From: a virus
Taxonomy: Duplodnaviria; Heunggongvirae; Uroviricota; Caudoviricetes
DNA: 9,571 nt
Virus record (IMG/VR): IMGVR_UViG_2703718868_000012
Location: 1 to 9,571 of that record
Strand: one strand, 5' to 3'
Under the pieces are notes generated by a model. It was not told where the DNA came from. It made no database searches and saw only the letters and a program-made list of their open reading frames with translations. The position numbers were made by a program, and so were the translations under genes. Shown here one piece after another: positions 1-9,571 of this stretch (positions are counted from its first letter, which is position 1; each line of letters opens with the position of its first letter).

Positions 1-1890
1 TCATAGTGAATCTGTCCCGCCTGATTTGACCATACCGCGATAATCCAGAGCTGCCACACCTGCATCAATACGGACTTTCCAGGCCACGCCGTCAACGATA
101 AAACCTTCCTGCTGTTCAAGGTAAGGCTCGTCATTGCCATCAAGATAAGCCACCTCGATTGTGTCCGTTCCCTGTGCGGAAAGCATGTACCATTGTTTTT
201 CGCTGATATCATCAAGGCGGGGATCGACGATGATATCAAGTAGCTTGTGATACGGGTTAAAGATCCCGCTGTTTTTATCAGCCCCGAAAGGTGCGGTTGA
301 GTTAATCATCTGCAACGCGCGATCTTCCAGTGCTGCCGGAACTAAAAGGAATTTAGGCGCAATATTCAGCACTTCGCCATTTTTGTCCTTCTGTGTGCGC
401 ATCAGGTGACGTGCTGCACTAAGTCCCGGTGTTGTCAGTCCTGCTTCAATCAGGTTGCTGTGTTTTTTGTCAAACAGCGCTATTCCGTCAGAAAGTTTTA
501 CGTTGCCTGTAAGCACCAGATTAACCAGATTTCCCACCGTTCTTGATGCTGCACGGCCCATAGCCATTGGCACCGTTGATAACTGATCAAGGTCATCATT
601 GATTATCGCCTGGCGGGTAATACTGAAAATATTCCCGTAAGTAGCCAGCGCGATGGGTTCACCGCGATCGCTGGTGGTGATGTATTTATATTCTGCCCCT
701 TCCGGCACTTTGTTTAACGTTGAGAAGCCATTCATACCAACGCGGCGGGCTTCCCGGAAGTTTGAAAGGGAACCTTTTTTCGTCCACTGGCGGAATGTTT
801 CGCCGCTGTGCTCCCAGCCTGCAAGCACTGATTTTTCAGCGCCACCAGCAAGAATATCGGTAAAATCGCTGCTGCTGTGGGTGAATGCCGCGTTTACTAT
901 CTGCGAGCGTGTGCCGTAGCTGCCCGTGCTTATACCACGATGGGTTAATGATGCCTGTGCCATATCGAAAAGGCTCATCATGGCGTAAGGATTACCGCGT
1001 TCGGCCCGTTCGTGACCAAGACGCGCATTAAGCCCCTGGCGCATTGCATCGCCGGTTATGTTGCCGTTATCCGTGTACGCGTAGTAAAGATTTGCGGGGG
1101 TGGTTTTGTTTGTTGGCGTTGATTCTTTACCCATAGCGAGTAAAAGGCGTTCGCGTGCATTCTCAACGCTACATTCTGAATCAGCAAGACAACTTATAGC
1201 CAGGTCGTTATATCTTCCGTTGAACGTGCCAAACAATTCACGTATCCCGTTGAGTCGTTCCTGTTCTCCGCTGCCAGTTTTCTGGCTGATCATGTTTTTA
1301 ATATTTTCCGGCATATTTGAAAAATCTCCGATTCGTTTTGATTCAATTCGGGCCATTGCTGTAATCGCGGGTATAACCTCATCTGCGAAACCGTTAGCCT
1401 TACACTCATTGCCATCCATCCAGGTTTCCGCCTCCATCATGGCGGTGATTTCCTGTTTACTCCTGCCCGTTCTTCCGGCGTAGGTTTCTGCCATCGTGTC
1501 GCCCAGCTTGTCCATCAGGTCAGCAAAGCGGCGAACGTCGCCCGACACTCCGGCAGTAACACCACGGGGGGCATGTATCATCATCATCGCGTTTTCAGGC
1601 ATAACGATGTGATCGCCACACATGGCAATAAACGAGGCCATAGAAGCCGCCATGCCCTCAATGTGTACAATTTTCTTTGCCGGATGATTTTTCAGGGCGT
1701 TATAGATAGCCAGCCCTTCAAAGATGTCGCCACCAGGTGAATGGATGCGAAGATGGATTTCAGACGCATTACCACACGCGTTGATCTCGTCAGTAAGTGC
1801 CGATGCTTTTACACCGTACCCGCCGATCTCGTCATAAATGCGCACATAGACAACATCTGCCATAGCCTTAATGGAAAACCATGTTTTCAT
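1..1890 (-). CDS. Prohead serine protease (ClpP-like) - scaffold-like linker - HK97-fold major capsid protein, single 629-aa polypeptide
   Basis: ATG at 1890, TGA at 3-1. N-terminal ~170 aa carry ClpP-like motifs GMAASMASF (compare E. coli ClpP GQAASMGAF around the catalytic Ser) and MMMIHAPRG (ClpP MIHQP, catalytic His). Middle ~100 aa are charged and helical. C-terminal ~330 aa look like an HK97-family major capsid protein (...FNPYHKLLDIIVDPRLDD...). Confidence 0.85.
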   Translation of the reverse strand: MKTWFSIKAMADVVYVRIYDEIGGYGVKASALTDEINACGNASEIHLRIHSPGGDIFEGLAIYNALKNHPAKKIVHIEGMAASMASFIAMCGDHIVMPENAMMMIHAPRGVTAGVSGDVRRFADLMDKLGDTMAETYAGRTGRSKQEITAMMEAETWMDGNECKANGFADEVIPAITAMARIESKRIGDFSNMPENIKNMISQKTGSGEQERLNGIRELFGTFNGRYNDLAISCLADSECSVENARERLLLAMGKESTPTNKTTPANLYYAYTDNGNITGDAMRQGLNARLGHERAERGNPYAMMSLFDMAQASLTHRGISTGSYGTRSQIVNAAFTHSSSDFTDILAGGAEKSVLAGWEHSGETFRQWTKKGSLSNFREARRVGMNGFSTLNKVPEGAEYKYITTSDRGEPIALATYGNIFSITRQAIINDDLDQLSTVPMAMGRAASRTVGNLVNLVLTGNVKLSDGIALFDKKHSNLIEAGLTTPGLSAARHLMRTQKDKNGEVLNIAPKFLLVPAALEDRALQMINSTAPFGADKNSGIFNPYHKLLDIIVDPRLDDISEKQWYMLSAQGTDTIEVAYLDGNDEPYLEQQEGFIVDGVAWKVRIDAGVAALDYRGMVKSGGTDSL

Positions 1891-2081
1891 AGCCAGGCCC
1901 CTAACGTTGCCCTGTACCAGTATTCAACCGCGCTGCGTGTGATTTGTCCTTTCGTGGGTACTGGCATACCCGGGTGATTATCTTTGATGAACTGCTGATA
2001 GCGTTCGATCTTCTCCATAGTTCCGGCGTCTATGTGTACCGTGGCACTTTTATCCGGCTTTCTGGTGTTGTTCTCTGGCAT
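1887..2081 (-). CDS. Hypothetical 64-aa protein, first gene of the capsid operon
   Basis: Strong SD AAGGAGGTGG (plus 2087-2096) ~5 nt before the ATG at 2081. Stop overlaps the capsid ATG as ATGA (1887-1890). The track ORF begins 11 codons further upstream without an RBS. No recognisable motif. Confidence 0.5.
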   Translation of the reverse strand: MPENNTRKPDKSATVHIDAGTMEKIERYQQFIKDNHPGMPVPTKGQITRSAVEYWYRATLGAWL

Positions 2082-2157
2082 AAATCCACCTCCTTTTTGG
2101 TTAACGGGCATCATTATTGATCGATAAAAGTAATAGATAAATCATTTTCTACCTGAA

Positions 2158-2191
2158 AATCAGATTATGATTTTTCTGATTATTCTCACAA
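2158..2191 (-). promoter_or_regulatory. Candidate sigma70-type promoter for the capsid operon with overlapping 7-bp inverted repeat
   Basis: On the minus strand: -35 TTGTGA (plus 2186-2191), 16-nt spacer, -10 CATAAT (plus 2164-2169), about 80 nt upstream of the ATG at 2081. Inverted repeat AATCAGA (2158-2164) / TCTGATT (2175-2181) overlaps the -10. Confidence 0.3.
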
Positions 2192-2276
2192 AGGCAAAGT
2201 TATTGACGCATTTTTGCCATTGAAGCAGTATTAAGACTCGTCATCCTGGCGATAAAAACTCCTTTGTCGTGTAAAA

Positions 2277-2311
2277 GCGCCTCCGGTAACAGCAATCGGG
2301 GGCGCTTTTTT
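2277..2311 (+). terminator. Rho-independent terminator-like hairpin plus T-tract
   Basis: Stem GCGCCTCC (2277-2284) pairs with GGGGGCGC (2298-2305) with one G-U pair; 13-nt loop; followed by TTTTTT (2306-2311). The reverse complement has a weaker U-tract, so it may act partly in both directions. Confidence 0.45.
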
Positions 2312-2508
2312 GCGCCTGTTTTTTGTAAATGTTTTCGGGAACGTTCCGGTGATGAACAAAAAACAACCTGATTCGATACTAAAAATTTTTATTTCTCAAC
2401 ATATCAATAGCTTATAGTGGTGGTGATGGTGCCATAAAAATCAAAAAATGCGCCTTTTTCCGCGCCCCTCCGCCCCGTGTTCAGGCCCACCCCGCCAGGA
2501 GGACCCGT

Positions 2509-2532
2509 AAAAAAGCCGGATTGCTCCGGCTT
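2509..2532 (-). terminator. Rho-independent terminator downstream of the ssb-like gene
   Basis: Hairpin AAGCCGG (2513-2519) / CCGGCTT (2526-2532), loop ATTGCT. On the minus strand it is followed by a U-tract (plus-strand A6 at 2509-2514). Lies ~15 nt past the stop at 2547-2549. Confidence 0.6.
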
Positions 2533-2546
2533 CTGTCACTCGTCGC

Positions 2547-2969
2547 TTAAAACGGTATGTTATCCCCGTACGGATCATCATTCCCCGCCTGTTGTTTTGC
2601 CCTGTTCAGCGCGTCAGTAGCCTGGCCCTGTTGACCTTTTTTGCCGCCCAGTCGCGCCGTTCGCGCACTGATTACACTGTCTGCGATAACCTGCCAGCCC
2701 TGCCGCGTTTCTCCGTTCTGCCCAGTCCACTGGCTGATCTGCATGTTACCCGCCACGCTCAGGAGTTCACCCTTGCGGTGCCTTTCCAGTGCTTCGGCCT
2801 GTCTGCCAAATGCCAGGACGGATAACCACATCGTCGCCGTTCCGTCATCTGCCTGGCTGCACGGAAGGGGGACCGCCATACGCGCCAGCGTCATCGGTGT
2901 GCCCTTGCTGGTCTGTTTTACCTGCGGGTCGTCCACCAGCCGCCCGTAAGCGGCTATCTGTGCTGTCAT
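2547..2969 (-). CDS. ssb: Single-stranded DNA-binding protein (SSB-like, OB fold with acidic ...IPF tail)
   Basis: 140 aa. N-terminal region aligns by eye with E. coli SSB (GRL..DP.V...W..V..FG..AE....KG....V.G......W....G..R). Gly/Gln-rich linker. C-terminus DDPYGDNIPF resembles the conserved SSB tail DDDIPF. ATG at 2969 overlaps the upstream stop as ATGA. Confidence 0.8.
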   Translation of the reverse strand: MTAQIAAYGRLVDDPQVKQTSKGTPMTLARMAVPLPCSQADDGTATMWLSVLAFGRQAEALERHRKGELLSVAGNMQISQWTGQNGETRQGWQVIADSVISARTARLGGKKGQQGQATDALNRAKQQAGNDDPYGDNIPF

Positions 2970-3223
2970 GATTCCACCTCTCCGGTTTTAACGTTGATTG
3001 TTGTTACCTGTTCCGCTTCGGCAATCTCCCGCTCTGTCAGCGTGGCAAAATTTGCCGCCGTCGTGGTCATGAATGCGCTTATCAGTTCGGGATGTGCTTT
3101 CGCGTATCCTTCCCCCGTGTTGCGGTCGATGATTTTTATCGCCACTCTCAGCCAGTGCTCTGTAAGGTCAATGGCGCGGTTATGCTGCTTCTTCTGATTA
3201 TTAAGTTTTCCTGATGTGCGCAT
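2966..3223 (-). CDS. Hypothetical 85-aa protein between the origin and ssb
   Basis: ATG at 3223 with a G-rich SD-like stretch (GAGGGGG) ~13 nt upstream; 4-nt ATGA overlap with ssb. No recognisable motif. Confidence 0.5.
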   Translation of the reverse strand: MRTSGKLNNQKKQHNRAIDLTEHWLRVAIKIIDRNTGEGYAKAHPELISAFMTTTAANFATLTEREIAEAEQVTTINVKTGEVES

Positions 3224-3271
3224 TTTTATTTTTACCCCCTCGTTTAAAAAGTTTTGAGTTGTGCCTCCCCT

Positions 3272-3498
3272 TGTCTACCTTATCTACCTTACTGGCCACC
3301 ATGCCAGTAATGGCGCGGCTTTCAGTGGGGTAGAGTGCTTTTATCCACTATCTACCCCGTATCTACCTCCCTGTCTGATTCAGGTAAAATCAGGTAGAGA
3401 GGGTAGATAGTAGGTAGACAGTAAAAAAAGGCTGTCTACCCAAGTTAATGTACTGAATTAAATGTATTTTTCTTTACTCAGGTAGACAGGGTAGACAG
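3272..3498. repeat. Iteron array, putative replication origin
   Basis: Eleven copies of the core GGTAGA / TCTACC. Plus-orientation TCTACC at 3274, 3283, 3351, 3362, 3435; reverse GGTAGA at 3329, 3393, 3402, 3413, 3481, 3490. Includes tandem GGTAGACAG x2 (3481-3498) and a 9-bp inverted pair GGTAGACAG (3413-3421) / CTGTCTACC (3432-3440). AT-rich stretch 3441-3480. Sits immediately 3' of the primase gene. Confidence 0.7.
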
Positions 3499-3511
3499 CC
3501 ATTGCAACAAA

Positions 3512-5266
3512 TTATAAAAACGCGTCGCAATCGTCTGTTGTTATTGCGTTAGTCTGCGTTACTCCTTTAACTTTCCGCGTAATATATTCATGTCCGTAAA
3601 CTTTCGCGGCTGGCTTCATAGCCTTGCCAAAGTCATTTACGTTTAGCGGTTTGCTCCTGCCTGCGTACGCCATAAACGCCAGATAGACGCGGTAAAGGCT
3701 GTTTCTGGTCGTGTACTTCACTGAATCGCCACCGCCGCCCATCATCAGGCCGCGTGCTTCCTCCAGAAAATTCAGGAACTGGCAAAACTCAATAACCGGA
3801 TCCGTCTGTTGCTTTATTGCCAGTGCTTCATCACCGTCACGCTGTTCCAGTAGTAAAGCCCGTGCCTTCTCAGGGTCGGTAAAGTTCGCCAGCAATCGGC
3901 GGATAATGACAGGGATTTCAGCCGCAATCTTTTCCGGTAGCTCCCTGTCTTTTTCGGCCTCACTGACGATATTGTCGAAACGGAAAATCACGCGACGACG
4001 TGCCACACCTCCGGCCCGTTCGGTGAATATCATCGGGTTATTGTTGGTCGCCAGCACCACCGCCCTGATTACAGCCGTGAAACGCTTTTCGTATTTCGGG
4101 TTAATTTCCACGGGGTCACCGCCCGTGATTTTCTTGATGCCCGTTCCTTCGCCTGTATATTTCGGCTGGTCAGCCAGGACGATAAGGCGACTCCCGACAA
4201 CCTGCGCACGTCCACCAGCATCATCAAGCGATGTCATTTCAGCGCTTACCGTGTTCTGTTTCCCTGCCAGAAGGCTGGCTATGTGTGTGAATGTACTTTT
4301 ACCGCTCCCGCCGTCTCCGGTGGCCTCAATAAACATCTGCCAGTCGTACCGGTTCGCCATAATCATGTACAGCGCGGCACATATCCGCATCATCTTGCGC
4401 GGGTCTTTTCCGGCTGCGTGCTCAAGCCATTTATGAAAGTTTGGCGCGTTATCGCGGATGTTCTCCCCTGGTGCTGGTGGCGTGTACTCAATACTGTTGT
4501 GCGTGGTGATCCAGTTCTCCGGCGTGTGCGGGGAAAATTCCCCCGTTTTCAGGTCAAGCGCACCATTGGCAAACGGCAGCAAATCGCCGGACGGCTCGCC
4601 CATTGGTTCGGCAATAACTTTTAACGCTTCCACGGCGTTATTGATTACGCGCTTGCTGAAAGTGGCCCTGTGCTCTGAATAGATCGCCACCATTTCGCGG
4701 CTAAGTTCCATTGTGCTGACCGGACACCATACCCCGCCGCGCCATACGTGAACGATTTCACTTTCAGGATGCACGCAAACGCCATCAAATCGTCCGGCAA
4801 GAAGTTGAGCGCGCTCACTGTCCGCCATCTGCGAAAGTTGCGCCTTTTGCTTTACAGGAAGCTCAATAACCAGCCCATCAGAAAGATTCTGGCGCTCACT
4901 GGCCAGATATTCGCGCCAGTTCTCCACCTTCTGACCGTGCATACCATCAGGGTAAAAATTTGCATCCTGTACGCCTGCCGCCGCCAGCTTCTGACCAATC
5001 GCCTTTATCATTACTGGCGCAAGATATCCGGCCCTGAATATGCGCACGGATTTTCTGCCTTCCGGCACAATTTGCAGCTTATCCAGTTCTGATAACTGCT
5101 GCTCCCCAAGCCACACAGGAGGCTCATTATCTCCGGCCATACGCGCGTCATGTTCCTGCCATTGTTTCGCGTGTGACCAGGCATCACTACCCGCAAAAAT
5201 AATGACTTCTGTTTCTTTGTGTTTTATGCCGCGTGGCTGCTGTTTTACGTTCGGTGCCAGTTTCAT
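3512..5266 (-). CDS. Phage/plasmid primase, P4 family (primase-helicase, D5-like NTPase)
   Basis: 584 aa. Walker A GDGGSGKST seen directly; a Walker B-like hydrophobic stretch ...LIVLAD... follows. Overall resemblance to the P4-alpha C-terminal / D5-type replicative primase-helicases of satellites. ATG at 5266 overlaps the upstream stop as ATGA; SD AGGGG ~8 nt upstream. Confidence 0.85.
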   Translation of the reverse strand: MKLAPNVKQQPRGIKHKETEVIIFAGSDAWSHAKQWQEHDARMAGDNEPPVWLGEQQLSELDKLQIVPEGRKSVRIFRAGYLAPVMIKAIGQKLAAAGVQDANFYPDGMHGQKVENWREYLASERQNLSDGLVIELPVKQKAQLSQMADSERAQLLAGRFDGVCVHPESEIVHVWRGGVWCPVSTMELSREMVAIYSEHRATFSKRVINNAVEALKVIAEPMGEPSGDLLPFANGALDLKTGEFSPHTPENWITTHNSIEYTPPAPGENIRDNAPNFHKWLEHAAGKDPRKMMRICAALYMIMANRYDWQMFIEATGDGGSGKSTFTHIASLLAGKQNTVSAEMTSLDDAGGRAQVVGSRLIVLADQPKYTGEGTGIKKITGGDPVEINPKYEKRFTAVIRAVVLATNNNPMIFTERAGGVARRRVIFRFDNIVSEAEKDRELPEKIAAEIPVIIRRLLANFTDPEKARALLLEQRDGDEALAIKQQTDPVIEFCQFLNFLEEARGLMMGGGGDSVKYTTRNSLYRVYLAFMAYAGRSKPLNVNDFGKAMKPAAKVYGHEYITRKVKGVTQTNAITTDDCDAFL

Positions 5267-5562
5267 TTTTTGCCCCTGAATCCGTTAATCATGTTTTTCA
5301 TCTTCTGAATATTGGCGCGTGCTTTCTCCCTGCTGGTGGGCACGTTACGCGGTACGGCCTGCACAAGAGAAAAATCACGCCGGAACTGATAAACAGGCAT
5401 CACGCAATCATATTCGTAACCTTCACGGCGGTAAGTTACGCACCGTCCCGCCACGCCCTTAATCATTACCGTGCCGCCGTACTGGTCGCGGTAAATATCA
5501 CCGCGCGTAAATTTAGGGTGAGTGTTGCCACTGGCAGTTAAGCCAGAATATTTAAATTTCAT
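5263..5562 (-). CDS. Hypothetical 99-aa protein, translationally coupled to the primase
   Basis: ATG at 5562, 5 nt after the upstream TAA; stop overlaps the primase ATG. Basic protein, no motif recognised. Confidence 0.5.
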   Translation of the reverse strand: MKFKYSGLTASGNTHPKFTRGDIYRDQYGGTVMIKGVAGRCVTYRREGYEYDCVMPVYQFRRDFSLVQAVPRNVPTSREKARANIQKMKNMINGFRGKK

Positions 5563-5567
5563 TATTT

Positions 5568-5801
5568 TTATTCTCCGGTGTGCTGTTCGTTATATCTGTC
5601 GTGCAATTGGTCTATTTCTTGCAGTTCCATTATTACAGGCTCAAGAAGCGTTATTAATGCCGTGGCAATTCTTGATTTTTGTTTGTCGCGTTCATTGTCG
5701 CCAAGTGTTTCAAGCCATATGCGCAATATTTCCAGCATGTTTTCACTGTGAGAAAGTGCAAGAAATGCGCGGTATATTGTTTCAAGATAAATATCACGCA
5801 T
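5568..5801 (-). CDS. Hypothetical 77-aa protein
   Basis: ATG at 5801 with a G-rich SD-like stretch (GGGGA) ~6 nt upstream; start sits 1 nt after the upstream stop (TAATATG). Predicted helical, acidic. Confidence 0.5.
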   Translation of the reverse strand: MRDIYLETIYRAFLALSHSENMLEILRIWLETLGDNERDKQKSRIATALITLLEPVIMELQEIDQLHDRYNEQHTGE

Positions 5802-5802
5802 A

Positions 5803-6024
5803 TTAATCCCCGTCCGTTGTTTTTCTTAAAACAGCTTCTGTCACGAAATCGGCATAGTTAGCGGCAATATCAAGAATATTTAGCCCTGTATCTCTGTGCT
5901 CATCAGTGCAAAGAAAGAAAAAAGCCACCCGCATAATTTCAGATATTAACGAAAGCGCATCAACCGCATCATCAGGAACGCCGGAAAATTCTTGTTTCAG
6001 GGAATTAAAACGATCATCACGCAT
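5803..6024 (-). CDS. Hypothetical 73-aa protein (start chosen at the internal ATG after the G8 tract)
   Basis: ATG at 6024 lies 2 nt after a G8 run that can act as SD, and overlaps the upstream gene's stop by 8 nt. The track start at 6072 would overlap the upstream gene by 56 nt with no RBS. Confidence 0.45.
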   Translation of the reverse strand: MRDDRFNSLKQEFSGVPDDAVDALSLISEIMRVAFFFLCTDEHRDTGLNILDIAANYADFVTEAVLRKTTDGD

Positions 6025-6238
6025 AACCCCCCCCATTTTCACAATCAGCAACAAGAATATTTTTAGCGTCATTCAGTGACCGCGTTGCGGTGTATCGGAT
6101 ACATTCCAGGGCGAATAGTGTGTATTCTTCCCGTCCTTCCTTTTGTGCAAGCTCTGCTGTGCATTCAATATCAATAAGCGCGTGCATCAGCGTAGTGAGT
6201 GCGGCAGCTGCTGCGTCCGGTGTGGTTTTATTGTGCAT
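6017..6238 (-). CDS. Hypothetical 73-aa protein
   Basis: ATG at 6238 preceded by AGGGGGA ~6 nt upstream. The track start at 6277 is a TTG without RBS support. The last codons (...ENGGGYA) run through the G8 tract. Confidence 0.45.
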   Translation of the reverse strand: MHNKTTPDAAAAALTTLMHALIDIECTAELAQKEGREEYTLFALECIRYTATRSLNDAKNILVADCENGGGYA

Positions 6239-6428
6239 AGGTTTCCCCCTGGCGAATACGGGCGGCGAATACCGCAATACAACCGGACGGGCAACGGCTA
6301 CGCGCTTCGCGTTCCGTCCAGGCGGTTACGTGGATGATTTGAGATTCTCCGGCACTCAGTGCCAGAAAACGCCACACAAAGGCCGTTTGTGTGTGTGCTA
6401 GTCGTGGGGTATGATTTACGGCAACCAT
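6228..6428 (-). CDS. Hypothetical 66-aa protein, first ORF of the small-ORF/primase operon
   Basis: ATG at 6428 with SD GAGAGGT ~6 nt upstream; ends 11 nt inside the next ORF in another frame. No motif recognised. Confidence 0.4.
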   Translation of the reverse strand: MVAVNHTPRLAHTQTAFVWRFLALSAGESQIIHVTAWTEREARSRCPSGCIAVFAARIRQGETYAQ

Positions 6429-6502
6429 AAATTTACCTCTCTATAGTGTTTGTGGTTAGACGCCCTGCATGTGTTCCAGCACTGTGGGGCGTTGTTTTTT
6501 GG

Positions 6503-6575
6503 TGCAAGTCACCTTGAAATCTAGGTTACTTTTAGGTGACTTGCACTTCAAGTCTTTTTTTATTTTTTTTTCTCC
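6503..6575. promoter_or_regulatory. Divergent control region: 12-bp perfect inverted repeat (operator-like) followed by a hairpin and long T-tract
   Basis: TGCAAGTCACCT (6503-6514) and AGGTGACTTGCA (6534-6545) are exact reverse complements, 19-bp spacer. Second hairpin GACTTG (6538-6543) / CAAGTC (6549-6554) is followed by T7-A-T9 (6555-6571). Lies between the divergent starts at 6428 (minus) and 6613 (plus). Confidence 0.45.
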
Positions 6576-6612
6576 GTATACTGAACACCACCTAACAGTA
6601 AGGAGAACAGAG

Positions 6613-6792
6613 ATGCCAACAGGTACAACCAACAACAAGTCACAACAAAAAACTGCTAGAGTACCTCTAGACGTTTTAAGCGAAATGAATTTGGTAAAAG
6701 AAGAAAACGAAACAGACGCACAATTTATCGTTACTGCCATGCGCGGCGAAATCAAACGCCGCCAGCGTCGCAAGGCCAAAGAATCAGAATAA
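6613..6792 (+). CDS. Small basic protein, possible ribbon-helix-helix DNA-binding regulator (59 aa)
   Basis: Canonical SD AAGGAG (6600-6605) 7 nt before the ATG at 6613. Sequence ...ARVPLDVLSEMNLVKEENETDAQFIVTAMRGEIKRRQRRK fits a beta-strand / helix / loop / helix RHH pattern with a basic tail. The first ~120 nt are markedly AT-rich. The longer track ORF from 6469 would translate the palindrome and T-tract. Confidence 0.55.
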   Translation: MPTGTTNNKSQQKTARVPLDVLSEMNLVKEENETDAQFIVTAMRGEIKRRQRRKAKESE

Positions 6793-6849
6793 TCACTATC
6801 AGCGCCGTGGTGTGAGGTACTACGGCGCATTGCTTTACAGGGCAGTATC

Positions 6850-7077
6850 ATGACCAACAACACACTATCACCAATACAAGACACGCAAACGCAAGATGAT
6901 GAAATCATCCGGCAAAGGCAGTCAGAAGCCTGCGCCAGACTTGAGGAAGAACTAACCAGAACAAAAATACCACCACCAGCGCCGCGCTTAGTGCCACCAG
7001 AAAAATTTGCCCTTGAAGATTTTGTCGATAAATACCCACGGCGGCTTAAATCCGGCAAAAACCGACCGCCAGGATGA
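6850..7077 (+). CDS. Hypothetical 75-aa protein (acidic, helical N-half, Pro-rich C-half)
   Basis: ATG at 6850 with a weak GGG SD ~7 nt upstream; reading frame looks protein-like. Preceded by hairpin GCGCCGT (6802-6808) / ACGGCGC (6822-6828). Confidence 0.4.
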   Translation: MTNNTLSPIQDTQTQDDEIIRQRQSEACARLEEELTRTKIPPPAPRLVPPEKFALEDFVDKYPRRLKSGKNRPPG

Positions 7078-7196
7078 GTGCACAAGACGGAACCATGAAA
7101 CGGATTATTCCGTTTCCGGGGCGTTTGTGTGTGTATAAAGAGTAAGCTATGCTCTTTTATAGCCATAATCGTTACCTCAATTAATGGTTTGGTTAG

Positions 7197-7238
7197 AAGC
7201 CCGTTGGTGTTCATAGCGCCAGCGGGCTTTGCTTTTTG
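7197..7238 (+). terminator. Rho-independent terminator ending the 6613-7077 transcription unit
   Basis: 11-bp stem AAGCCCGTTGG (7197-7207) / CCAGCGGGCTT (7219-7229) with one G-U pair, 11-nt loop, then a U-rich tail TTGCTTTTTGTG. Confidence 0.5.
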
Positions 7239-7248
7239 TGTTGATTGT

Positions 7249-7282
7249 ATGTAATGTGTCACCACGCATAAATACATTACAT
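7249..7282 (+). promoter_or_regulatory. 9-bp perfect inverted repeat, candidate operator just upstream of the Arc-like gene
   Basis: ATGTAATGT (7249-7257) and ACATTACAT (7274-7282) are exact reverse complements, 16-bp spacer. Preceded by a TTGATT -35-like hexamer (7241-7246); ends 15 nt before the GTG start. Confidence 0.35.
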
Positions 7283-7296
7283 GAGGTGTAATTAAC

Positions 7297-7476
7297 GTGT
7301 CAACACACAAAAACGAAAGGCGTGGTAATCCTCCGTTCCAGTTCCGTTTAGATCCTGACTTACGGGAAAAGATGGAAAAGGCACAACAACATGACGGCGA
7401 TGATTCTCTTGCTGCCTGGATAAAGCGAATAATCCGCAAAGAATTACAGCAACGCGGCATAGAACCCAAAGGGTAA
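7297..7476 (+). CDS. Arc-family ribbon-helix-helix DNA-binding protein (59 aa)
   Basis: GTG at 7297 with SD GAGGTG 8 nt upstream. PPFQFRLDPDLREKMEKAQQHDGDDSLAAWIKRIIRKEL matches the Arc repressor pattern (P22 Arc PQFNLRWPREVLDLVRKVAEENGRSVNSEIYQRV). Absent from the supplied track (GTG start, under 60 aa). Confidence 0.6.
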   Translation: MSTHKNERRGNPPFQFRLDPDLREKMEKAQQHDGDDSLAAWIKRIIRKELQQRGIEPKG

Positions 7477-7571
7477 TTACATTGCCCACCAGCCTGATAG
7501 CGGCTATCATTCCCGTGCTTATGTTTGGGATCACATACACATAAGGCGCAGCAGGTTAATTGTTCACAAGG

Positions 7572-7597
7572 GCGTTCCGGCAACGGGGCGCTTTTTG
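7572..7597 (+). terminator. Terminator-like hairpin plus T5 downstream of the Arc-like gene
   Basis: Stem GCGTTCC (7572-7578) / GGGGCGC (7585-7591) including G-U pairs, loop GGCAAC, then TTTTT. No U-tract on the opposite strand. Confidence 0.35.
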
Positions 7598-7626
7598 TTA
7601 TGTTCATCGTGTCAAGCCTCACACCA

Positions 7627-7833
7627 TTACGCAGCCGTTCCGCGTGCTTCCTGCTCACGTTCTTTCATCCATGCGATTACGTCTTCCTCATACCATCCGC
7701 GACGGCGTAAACCAACGCGAAAACCCTGCGGAAATTCTCCGGCGTTGATCATGCTTTGAAGCGTGCTGTCTGCCTTGATGTGGATAAGTTTTTTTACTTC
7801 CTGGCGAAAGATGACTTTTTTGATTGCTTCCAT
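7627..7833 (-). CDS. alpA: AlpA-family transcriptional regulator / excisionase-like protein (68 aa)
   Basis: ...IKADSTLQSMINAGEFPQGFRVGLRRRGWYEEDVIAWMKE matches the AlpA pattern (helix-turn-helix, then G.FP...LG.R...W...V..W). Sits near the integrase as in P4-like and PICI elements. Confidence 0.8.
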   Translation of the reverse strand: MEAIKKVIFRQEVKKLIHIKADSTLQSMINAGEFPQGFRVGLRRRGWYEEDVIAWMKEREQEARGTAA

Positions 7834-7965
7834 CGTGATTTACCTTGTGAATCCGGTGTATTCCGGTGACAAATACGGTAAATCATCGGATACGGGTAAA
7901 AACAGTTCCCACCGTTTTTAAACTGTTAGAACCGTTTTTTATGTTGGTGATTTGAAAGGGATTTA

Positions 7966-7990
7966 TAAAAAAAGCGGCATTTCTGCCGCT
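7966..7990 (-). terminator. Rho-independent terminator after the 83-aa ORF
   Basis: Perfect 7-bp stem AGCGGCA (7973-7979) / TGCCGCT (7984-7990), loop TTTC. On the minus strand it is followed by U7 (plus-strand A-run 7967-7973). Lies 11 nt past the stop at 8001. Confidence 0.6.
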
Positions 7991-8000
7991 TTGAGGATTG

Positions 8001-8252
8001 TTACCGCCATTTTTTTGGCCTGCCTCCGGTCTTCATGGTTGCCGGACGAACTACCCTGTCGATACTTTCAGCCATATTCCTGGATGCCCCACGGGATACC
8101 AGGAAATCTACTACCTGTTTTTTTGATGGGGCCGTCGTTCTGTCCTCCGGATCGTAGGTTGACCAAAATTCATGCTGAACCATCAGGGCCAGTTGCAGCC
8201 CGTCGCAATTGCATCTGAAATTTTTTTGCATCTTAACGGTTTCATGTTTCAC
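8001..8252 (-). CDS. Hypothetical 83-aa protein between integrase and alpA
   Basis: Open frame with GTG at 8252 (weak AAGG SD) or internal ATG at 8231; basic C-terminus ...KTGGRPKKWR; own terminator. Start uncertain. Confidence 0.4.
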   Translation of the reverse strand: MKHETVKMQKNFRCNCDGLQLALMVQHEFWSTYDPEDRTTAPSKKQVVDFLVSRGASRNMAESIDRVVRPATMKTGGRPKKWR

Positions 8253-8329
8253 GGCCTTGTCGTTAAATTTGATGCAATTATACGACGGTTTTACATGGTT
8301 TTCGTAGTTTTTACTGGTTTTCTGTACAG

Positions 8330-9571
8330 CTAAACGGCTCGGATACCCCTTTTACCACTGGCGAGGGTTACGCCCGTCGCCGCAGCCTCGACAAATTCGC
8401 CCCACCAGCGCATAAGCACCACGCGTTTTTCTATGTAGTTGCTCCGGTTGTATGCCCGTCTCACTTCGTTAGTGTCGACGTGGGCAAGTGCGGCCTCGAT
8501 TACGTCCGGCTCGAATCCTTCCTCGTTCGCTGCTGTACTGAATATGGCGCGTAATCCATGAGACACCAGCACGCCAGCGAACCCCATGCGTCGTAATGCT
8601 GCGTTTGCTGTCTGGCTGTTCATTGGCTGCCGTGGGTCTTTCAGACTCGGGAAAACATAATCGCGGTGGCGGCTGATTGGTTTCATGGCCTCCAGCACCG
8701 CCATAGCCTGACCGGAAAGTGGGATAACGTGATCCCTGCGCATCTTCATGCGTCCGGCGGGTATCGTCCAGCGTTGCGCGTCCAGGTCGATTTCATCCCA
8801 CCGCGTTGATGACGCTTCGGCGGGACGGGTTACGGTCAGTAACTGCCATTCAATCAGTAATCTGGTCTGCCGTTCTGTTGCCGATACTGATAAAGCCTGC
8901 ATAAGCTCCGGCAACTGTTCGGGGCGGATTGTTGGCATATGTTTTTTTACAGGGGAGGGGAACGCCTTACGCACATTCATAGCCGGATTGGCATCAATCA
9001 GCCCACTGTTGGCGGCGTAATCCATTACCTCATTAACGCGCTGTAAAACCCGTTTGAGTGTTTCCAGGTTGCCGCGCTCCTTGATGGGGGTAAGCACCTC
9101 AACGAACCTGCGAGCGGTCAGGGTGTCTATTGGGGTGTTGCCGATGAACGGGAATACATATTTATCCAGCGATCGCCAGATGTCTTTAATCGTGTTGGGG
9201 GCCAGATTCTGGCTGATTTTCACCTGGTACCATGCCGCCGCCACATTTTCGAACGTGTTCCCTTGTCTTCGGGCCTCTGCCTCTCGTTTTTTCTTCTCAT
9301 GGCCCTGCGGGTCAGTTCCGGCACTGATTAACGCTCTGTACTCGCTACGGCGTTTTCTGGCATCAGCCAGGGAAACATCATCAAGCGATCCAAAACTCAG
9401 CAATATTCTTTTTTTGTCCGATGGCCGGTAGTAGGAAAATCGCCAGAGTTTTGATCCGGACGGTTTGACCAGGAGAAAAAGCCCTCCGCCGTCCTGTAGG
9501 GTGTATTCCTTTTCCGCTGGTCTGGCTGCTTTGATCTGCACCGTGGTTAATGGGGGTGTTTTTCTCGCCAT
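8330..9571 (-). CDS. int: Site-specific tyrosine integrase, P4 / CP4-57 type
   Basis: 413 aa. N-terminus MARKTPPLTTVQIKAARPAEKEYTLQDGGGLFLLVKPSGSKLWRFSYY is typical of P4-family integrase arm-binding domains. C-terminal catalytic region carries HGLR... and ...RAYNRSNY (candidate His/Arg/Tyr residues). ATG is at the very last bases of the window, so upstream signals are unseen. Confidence 0.9.
   Translation of the reverse strand: MARKTPPLTTVQIKAARPAEKEYTLQDGGGLFLLVKPSGSKLWRFSYYRPSDKKRILLSFGSLDDVSLADARKRRSEYRALISAGTDPQGHEKKKREAEARRQGNTFENVAAAWYQVKISQNLAPNTIKDIWRSLDKYVFPFIGNTPIDTLTARRFVEVLTPIKERGNLETLKRVLQRVNEVMDYAANSGLIDANPAMNVRKAFPSPVKKHMPTIRPEQLPELMQALSVSATERQTRLLIEWQLLTVTRPAEASSTRWDEIDLDAQRWTIPAGRMKMRRDHVIPLSGQAMAVLEAMKPISRHRDYVFPSLKDPRQPMNSQTANAALRRMGFAGVLVSHGLRAIFSTAANEEGFEPDVIEAALAHVDTNEVRRAYNRSNYIEKRVVLMRWWGEFVEAAATGVTLASGKRGIRAV

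Follow-up and report, generated by a model that had tools for sequence, protein, structure and literature searches.

The origins of Staphylococcus aureus pathogenicity islands (SaPIs) consist of six to twelve iterons of five or six nucleotides immediately behind the open reading frame (ORF) of the initiator, together with an AT-rich region and opposed iterons that flank it (PMC9371898), and the SaPI initiator combines a self-loading superfamily 3 (SF3) helicase with a winged-helix domain at its C-terminus (Qiao et al. 2022, PMC9371898). Gram-negative phage-inducible chromosomal islands (PICIs) have their origin immediately 3' of the replication gene (Fillol-Salom et al. 2018, ISME J, PMC6092414); the iteron/AT-rich origin of EcCICFT073, the prototype of these islands with its attachment site between roxA (ycfD) and phoQ, is drawn in Fig. 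2a of that study and the plasmid tests are given in Fig. 2b. Here we analyse a 9,571-bp stretch of DNA (IMG/VR virus record IMGVR_UViG_2703718868_000012, positions 1 to 9,571), which we call the window, and in particular the array of short repeats that lies directly 3' of its initiator gene pri (pri-rep). We find that the interval 3224-3511 is very probably the vegetative replication origin of a Gram-negative PICI, the same origin as that of EcCICFT073. This origin is already known and was tested experimentally in 2018.

The region downstream of pri is identical to the EcCICFT073 origin

The array sits in a 288-bp gap (3224-3511) between the stop codon of the minus-strand gene pri and the start of an ORF of 85 residues. 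All 288 bases of this gap are identical to the region downstream of pri in EcCICFT073 (NC_004431.1, 1383996-1384283). The two initiators are nearly identical as well, with 578 of 584 residues shared; the differences, at residues 11, 123, 158, 258, 463 and 473, leave the C-terminal DNA-binding domain unaffected. The gap is present in 564 of 5426 complete E. coli genomes, always on the chromosome, and no annotated feature lies on it in any of the 30 matches listed among these 564 genomes. One match at 100% belongs to an island between roxA (ycfD) and phoQ, the site named above for EcCICFT073.

Because the DNA is identical, the published plasmid experiments can be read directly onto the window by mapping their primers. 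The pri-ori clone pJP2027 spans approximately the window-equivalent interval 3201 to 5310, with its end primer at 3201-3221 (there is a one-base difference in the printed primer). In the pri-delta-ori clone pJP2028 the end primer lies at 3508-3528, so this clone removes 3201-3507, that is, all eleven repeats and the AT-rich stretch. In a thermosensitive vector and with pri under an arabinose promoter, pJP2027 gave colonies at the restrictive temperature of 44 C, a pri mutant of the pri-ori plasmid gave zero colonies, and pJP2028 gave significantly fewer colonies than the pri-ori plasmid (PMC6092414). These experiments show that pri is required and that the region contributes strongly to autonomous replication. 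In EcCICFT073 itself, deletion of pri-rep lowers transfer from about 1e5 to about 50.

A first-pass annotation of the window, made by a model from the letters alone, had read positions 3272-3498 as a primase-dependent origin. The identity with EcCICFT073 and the published pri-ori, delta-pri and delta-ori plasmids support that reading, and the replication test of primase plus array fragment that it proposed had already been published on identical DNA with the predicted outcome (PMC6092414). Its coordinates are accurate, and we consider the whole gap to be the better functional unit. That a true replication origin can be pinpointed from raw sequence is the main thing confirmed here. As a PICI replicon the element is a textbook case, and the understanding of PICI elements is unchanged by the finding; what we add is modest, namely a conservation footprint, a P4-type core layout, allele pairs of binding domain and iteron, a conserved 21-bp block and evidence on cassette mobility.

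The repeat array and its conservation

The hexamer GGTAGA occurs 12 times on the two strands of the window where 2.08 occurrences are expected, and none of 200 dinucleotide shuffles reached 12. Eleven of these twelve GGTAGA/TCTACC cores fall inside 222 bp (3274-3495), an interval in which about 0.05 would be expected (Poisson P(>=11)=8e-23); the twelfth, at 2148, lies outside the array and represents no excess over chance. To compare the array across islands we collected 159 further loci with Pri relatives from metagenome and viral contigs, and three from reference genomes. The region downstream of the initiator was usable in 147 loci including the window, and these contain 88 distinct origins of the GGTAGA type, to which the conservation values below refer. 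The features of the gap are as follows.

3224-3511, no strand: complete pri-orf85 intergenic region, very probably the PICI origin; 288 of 288 bases identical to EcCICFT073
3224-3256, minus strand: leader and ribosome-binding site (GAGGGGG) of the 85-residue ORF; about 90-100% conserved over 3226-3255
3274-3288, minus strand: outermost pair of TCTACC, at 3274 and 3283, 9 bp apart; 94-97% conserved
3305-3325, no strand: conserved non-iteron block of 21 bp, CAGTAATGGCGCGGCTTTCAG; about 90% or more at nearly every position
3329-3334, plus strand: lone distal iteron GGTAGA; 95-98% conserved
3351-3367, minus strand: distal pair of TCTACC, at 3351 and 3362, 11 bp apart; cores 95-98% conserved, adjoining bases 20-62%
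3393-3498, plus strand: P4-ori-type core of three direct iterons (3393, 3402, 3413), one inverted (3435), the AT spacer and two direct (3481, 3490); collinear with the P4 ori and a Serratia origin
3393-3421, plus strand: three direct iterons, GGTAGAGAG, GGTAGATAG and GGTAGACAG, 9 and 11 bp apart; first two cores 93-100% conserved
3432-3440, minus strand: inverted iteron CTGTCTACC, touching the spacer on its distal side; replaced by an inverted pair in about half of the variants
3441-3480, no strand: AT-rich spacer, presumed DNA unwinding element, from A+T content and duplex stability
3481-3498, plus strand: exact tandem iteron pair, GGTAGACAG twice, on the pri-proximal side of the spacer; cores kept in 98-99% of variants

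The cores start at 3274, 3283, 3351, 3362 and 3435 on the minus strand and at 3329, 3393, 3402, 3413, 3481 and 3490 on the plus strand. They are grouped as pairs and triplets at a spacing of 9-11 bp, approximately one helical turn, and the array begins 14 bp beyond the pri stop codon. The AT-rich stretch at 3441-3480 is 40 bp long with 77.5% A+T, rising to 84% in the sub-stretch 3445-3476; it is the least stable duplex of the gap and ranks as the fourth least stable 30-mer in the window. Every element that the first-pass annotation had named is recovered here: eleven cores in both orientations within about 225 bp (we place them at 3274-3495), an exact tandem 9-mer (GGTAGACAG-GGTAGACAG at 3481-3498), a 9-bp inverted pair (GGTAGACAG at 3413-3421 and CTGTCTACC at 3432-3440), the 40-bp AT-rich element, and a position immediately 3' of the primase gene.

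Across the 88 variants, conservation reaches 94-100% in nine of the eleven cores but only 20-62% in the bases that flank them. Core positions average 0.915 identity, against 0.73 for the rest of the gap (Mann-Whitney p=2e-12); the cores are under selection. The exceptions are the cores at 3413 and 3435, where alleles have either a third direct and one inverted copy, as in the window, or an inverted pair: about half of the variants carry TCTACC N6 TCTACC in place of the single inverted iteron, and opposed iterons are thereby kept on both sides of the spacer. Core copy number is 9-12 in nearly all GGTAGA-type variants and the orientation pattern is largely kept. The spacer behaves differently from the cores: it keeps a length of 39-40 bp and 69-87% A+T, and its sequence drifts. 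The comparison of repeats across related islands that the first-pass annotation had suggested therefore gives conserved cores and, as described below, a repeat word that tracks the type of initiator. In two of the 88 variants (among loci L012-L170) we find the reversed orientation string '>>><>><<<<<', which reflects either an origin inverted relative to pri or a mis-picked ORF.

Conservation of the 21-bp block at 3305-3325 is comparable to that of the iterons, and the block lies where the gap is richest in GC and most stable. The RepA-type origin of the sister islands introduced below lacks it. The Serratia origin has a look-alike that agrees in 15 of 21 positions, at the same relative position and inverted. 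In P4, a post hoc search from which we draw no conclusion finds two look-alikes with at most 4 mismatches, at 7053 and at about 11549, where 0.003 are expected; neither of them falls in the P4 ori or crr.

The initiator protein

The domain structure of Pri is consistent with a protein that binds and opens such an origin. Residues 1-130 form a Toprim-like N-terminus, followed by a D5_N domain (154-282), an SF3 helicase core (DUF5906/TIGR01613, with the Walker A motif GDGGSGKS at 317) and an origin-binding domain of the P4-alpha type (488-576). At the level of sequence, residues 195-432 match the structure of the SaPI5 PriRep protein (7OLA, E=3e-15) and residues 488-576 match the crystal structure of the origin-binding winged-helix domain of P4 alpha (1KA8, E=1e-7). 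A single-sequence model of the origin-binding domain reached a predicted local distance difference test score (pLDDT) of 51 and was not used for a fold search; its homologue set is shallow and contaminated by frameshifted fragments. The N-terminal domain of Pri also heads the RepA-family helicase of the sister islands (45% identity, E=1e-25).

From this we conclude firmly that Pri is a helicase-initiator. Primase activity, implied by the label 'primase' of the first-pass annotation, is unproven, because the fold of residues 1-130 is no more than Toprim-like and, by eye in an alignment and a model, we see no canonical Toprim DxD motif in this domain.

By analogy with the SaPI Rep and P4 alpha proteins, the origin would work as follows. 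Induction of the island by a helper phage would lead to production of Pri from the gene directly upstream of the origin, and the C-terminal winged-helix domain of Pri would bind the 8-9-bp iterons. Opposed iterons could then place helicase hexamers on either side of the 40-bp AT spacer, where the SF3 (D5-type) helicase part of Pri would self-load and melt the spacer. Priming might come from the Toprim-like N-terminal domain of Pri or from host DnaG, after which host polymerase would copy the island, presumably aided by the single-strand DNA-binding protein (SSB) that the island encodes just downstream. The binding of Pri to the iterons, the site of melting, the geometry of helicase loading and the source of the primer are all carried over from these better described systems.

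Pairing of initiator and iteron alleles

If Pri recognizes these repeats, as the sequences lead us to infer, then the repeat word should change when the initiator changes, and this is what we see at the level of initiator families. Sister islands that have the same backbone and a RepA-type initiator carry an array of AAGTGAGG and an AT-rich stretch at the same position. In homologues of Pri at 51-55% identity, which come from Serratia, Morganella and metagenomes, that position is occupied by CTGTTCAC (the P4 type I word) or by TGTTCAT; by source, TGTTCAC is found in the Serratia and metagenome homologues and TGTTCAT in Morganella. The origin-binding domain of the Serratia and Morganella copies is 32% identical to that of the window and is more P4-like (motif YLYHAYLAYM).

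A finer version of the same relation appears within the GGTAGA group, where the origin-binding domains are 96-99% identical and two alleles differ at Pri residues 544, 545 and 547 (residues 544-547 correspond to window positions 3626-3637). The allele NDFG occurs with the iteron GGTAGA-YAR in 40 of 40 cases and the allele A[E/D]FS occurs with GGTAGA-DGR in 44 of 45; the iteron of the window allele is GGTAGAYAG. The pairing between allele and iteron positions 7-9 holds in 84 of 85 distinct locus pairs (Fisher p=1e-23, a value that overstates independence, since the two sites lie only about 125 bp apart in related sequences and linkage inflates the statistic). Two features of the data favour co-adaptation: the change in the iteron is concerted across about ten copies, and the pairing survives recombination of the N-terminus, as in locus L008, which combines an N-terminus of the L005/L006 type with a binding domain and iterons of the window type. 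A HMMER alignment and a low-confidence model would weakly put residues 544-547 where the third helix of 1KA8 begins. Taken together, the allele pairs suggest two replicon specificity groups among E. coli PICIs. The first-pass annotation had proposed the array as a specificity determinant of the element, and this is supported for the initiator family and for the allele; it does not extend to the individual island, because the core is common to 88 variants and to hundreds of E. coli genomes.

One can go further and picture a composite origin, in which a P4-type core (3393-3498) is fused to a distal arm of five iterons (3274-3367) with the 21-bp block, the latter perhaps a crr-like, priming or host-factor site. 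Allele-level specificity would be layered on top: N544, D545 and G547, at the beginning of what is presumed to be the recognition helix of Pri, as against A, E/D and S would set positions 7-9 (YAG as against KGG) and define two functionally separate replicon groups among near-identical E. coli PICIs. We offer this composite picture tentatively and would lean against it as a whole. That the distal iterons and the 21-bp block act like crr is speculation. The allele pairs predict replicon groups whose members might or might not cross-react in a cell that harbours two islands, and this prediction bears on the co-residence of islands and on the engineering of PICI-based delivery vectors.

Several observations weigh against parts of the account given so far. 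Deletion of the origin region lowers colony numbers without abolishing them (PMC6092414). The AT spacer is off-centre: two iterons lie towards pri and the other nine away from it, whereas its counterpart in SaPI origins is roughly central. The conserved 21-bp block falls outside our model of iteron binding and spacer melting, and both of these steps are themselves argued by analogy. The lack of a canonical DxD motif, judged by eye, leaves the primase label of Pri unproven, and the linkage between binding domain and iterons counts against taking the allele statistic at face value.

Alternative readings of the array

The partial effect of the deletion invites a reading in which the repeats serve mainly transcriptional control, as an operator, roadblock or promoter for orf85-ssb and the morphogenesis genes, and origin activity is secondary. 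Many plasmid iterons also autoregulate, and the array does lie between genes that run in the same direction, a short way ahead of a conserved leader and ribosome-binding site. However, a scan of 2900-3700 finds no sigma-70-like promoter on either strand and no minus-strand terminator (the one site that resembles a terminator lies within orf85, on the non-coding strand). Moreover, the plasmid assay that showed the merely reduced replication measured replication with pri under the arabinose promoter, and the layout of six iterons matches the P4 replication origin. We therefore regard primary transcriptional control as very unlikely.

Satellite islands need a packaging signal in cis, and terminase small subunits or partition proteins can make use of short repeats in clusters, so that one might take the array for a packaging (cos/pac), partition or incompatibility site. 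In EcCICFT073, however, genetic tests tie packaging to two lambda-like cos sites: transfer was abolished once both had been deleted. The repeat word, furthermore, follows the type of initiator (primase, RepA or P4-like), independently of the capsid module, with an identical origin found beside two capsid modules. A packaging or partition role in place of an origin is, in our judgement, highly improbable.

There is next to no chance that the repeats are part of an unannotated protein-coding or structured RNA gene: the only ORF across the array (49 residues, 3261-3410, plus strand) is frameshifted or stopped in 54 of the 88 variants, conservation follows the hexamer cores in both orientations and not a reading frame, and the weak Rfam match to mir-3927 at 3336-3433 (E=0.49; 25.5 bits against a gathering threshold of 90) is to a eukaryotic microRNA family and is one of just two chance-level matches in the whole window at E up to 1, the other being symR (E=0.17). 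The first-pass annotation had itself named a conserved coding feature as the finding that would speak against an origin; with the frame broken in so many variants, the origin reading stands.

Island context and exchange of the replication module

The sizeable ORFs of the window are all on the minus strand. In the order of transcription they are as follows.

8330-9571, minus strand: tyrosine integrase, int
7627-7833, minus strand: AlpA-like helix-turn-helix protein, a weak match (E=0.003, below the Pfam cut-off)
6456-7658, minus strand: Icd-like mosaic ORF of 400 residues with a GTG start
5263-5562, minus strand: DUF4222 gene
3512-5266, minus strand: pri (pri-rep), initiator of 584 residues, 'DNA primase family'
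2966-3223, minus strand: ORF of 85 residues, phrog_1231, function unknown
2547-2969, minus strand: SSB, last gene of the replication module (Pfam SSB, E=5e-15)
1-1890, minus strand: ClpP-major-capsid fusion gene

Several small ORFs lie between the 400-residue ORF and the DUF4222 gene. Compared with EcCICFT073, the window is similar only over 2665-6233, at 93%. The closest whole-island relative is about 10 kb long and lies at tRNA-Pro between yejM and yejO. EcCICFT073 has separate genes for the major capsid and head-decoration proteins beside its pri-ori cassette, whereas the window has a gene that fuses a ClpP protease to the major capsid protein. Since the same pri-ori cassette is thus found in islands with different capsid modules and different attachment sites, the replication module is exchanged independently of both. 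We considered a capsid-forming PICI and rejected it: the closest relative is only about 10 kb long and has no annotated portal or terminase genes, which argues for a classical Gram-negative PICI.

In every primase-type module annotated here the 85-residue ORF is located immediately after the origin and before ssb, and the RepA-type module has a gene of similar size in the same slot; we regard its product as a candidate accessory replication factor. After ssb comes a 430-bp AT-rich intergenic region (2115-2546), which contains the stray GGTAGA at 2148. On the minus strand at about 2495-2525 a hairpin is followed by a T-run, by eye an intrinsic terminator that would close the replication operon. 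The 400-residue ORF at 6456-7658 has no match in Pfam, NCBIfam, PHROG or PADLOC. It shows a strong AT skew, lies in a variable region and belongs to a large mosaic E. coli family with 1556 matches; many of its longer relatives (about 430-600 residues) are named 'host cell division inhibitor Icd-like protein'.

Comparison with known origins

Classical plasmid iteron origins, such as those of pSC101, R6K, RK2, F and P1, have conserved DnaA boxes and a Rep initiator that binds tandem direct repeats about 17-22 bp long. The window does not belong to this class: its repeats are 6-9 bp long and occur in both orientations. A lone DnaA-like box, TTATCCACT (3341-3349), is kept in only 33 of the 88 variants, and a search of the origin region for host-factor motifs found no consensus for integration host factor (IHF) and no GATC.

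The RepA-type sister PICIs are closer in layout. Their origin is also located 3' of the initiator and before orf85-ssb, and likewise combines short bidirectional repeats with an AT stretch. They differ in having a RepA/DnaB-like helicase core without a P4-type origin-binding domain, and in their repeat word, AAGTGAGG.

SaPI origins resemble the window in the points listed at the outset. The eleven hexamer cores downstream of pri lie within the range of six to twelve short iterons, and Pri has, at least by sequence, both the SF3 helicase and the C-terminal winged-helix domain of the SaPI initiator. In SaPIs the AT-rich region has a roughly central place and two or more iterons on either side, in opposing orientation. 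The spacer of the window is bracketed by opposed iterons (3435 on the minus strand, 3481 and 3490 on the plus strand), but it is off-centre and only one inverted iteron abuts it distally, where other alleles have a pair. The iteron word is unrelated to that of SaPIs, the N-terminal domain of the initiator differs, and the host lineage is Gram-negative with unidirectional transcription.

Window positions 3386-3505 are collinear, iteron for iteron, with positions 9303-9422 of P4. In P4, in the Serratia origin and in the window alike we find three direct iterons, one inverted, an AT spacer of 35-40 bp and a further two direct ones, and the whole is oriented alike with respect to the initiator gene. 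The words themselves differ: the P4 word GGTGAACA and the window's commonest 8-mer GGTAGACA are identical at 6 of 8 positions and have a swapped dinucleotide. The P4 type I iteron TGTTCACC is not matched exactly in the window, whose word is TGTCTACC (GGTAGACA), and only the 51-55% homologues carry the P4 word exactly. The arrangement of the sites differs too. In the annotated P4 genome crr follows immediately on the 3' side of alpha and ori is found about 2.1 kb past the 5' end of that gene, and both are needed, whereas the window has a single cluster, 3' of pri. A search of the window for GGTAGAYAG with at most one mismatch gives no second, crr-like cluster but two isolated matches elsewhere, both GGCAGACAG. 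The P4 alpha protein, at 777 residues, is also longer than Pri, which has 584 residues with a Toprim-like N-terminus of only 130, and the two origin-binding domains are highly diverged.

The closest described system is EcCICFT073. There the island differs from that of the window in its attachment site and in its capsid genes, and the origin itself is no different.
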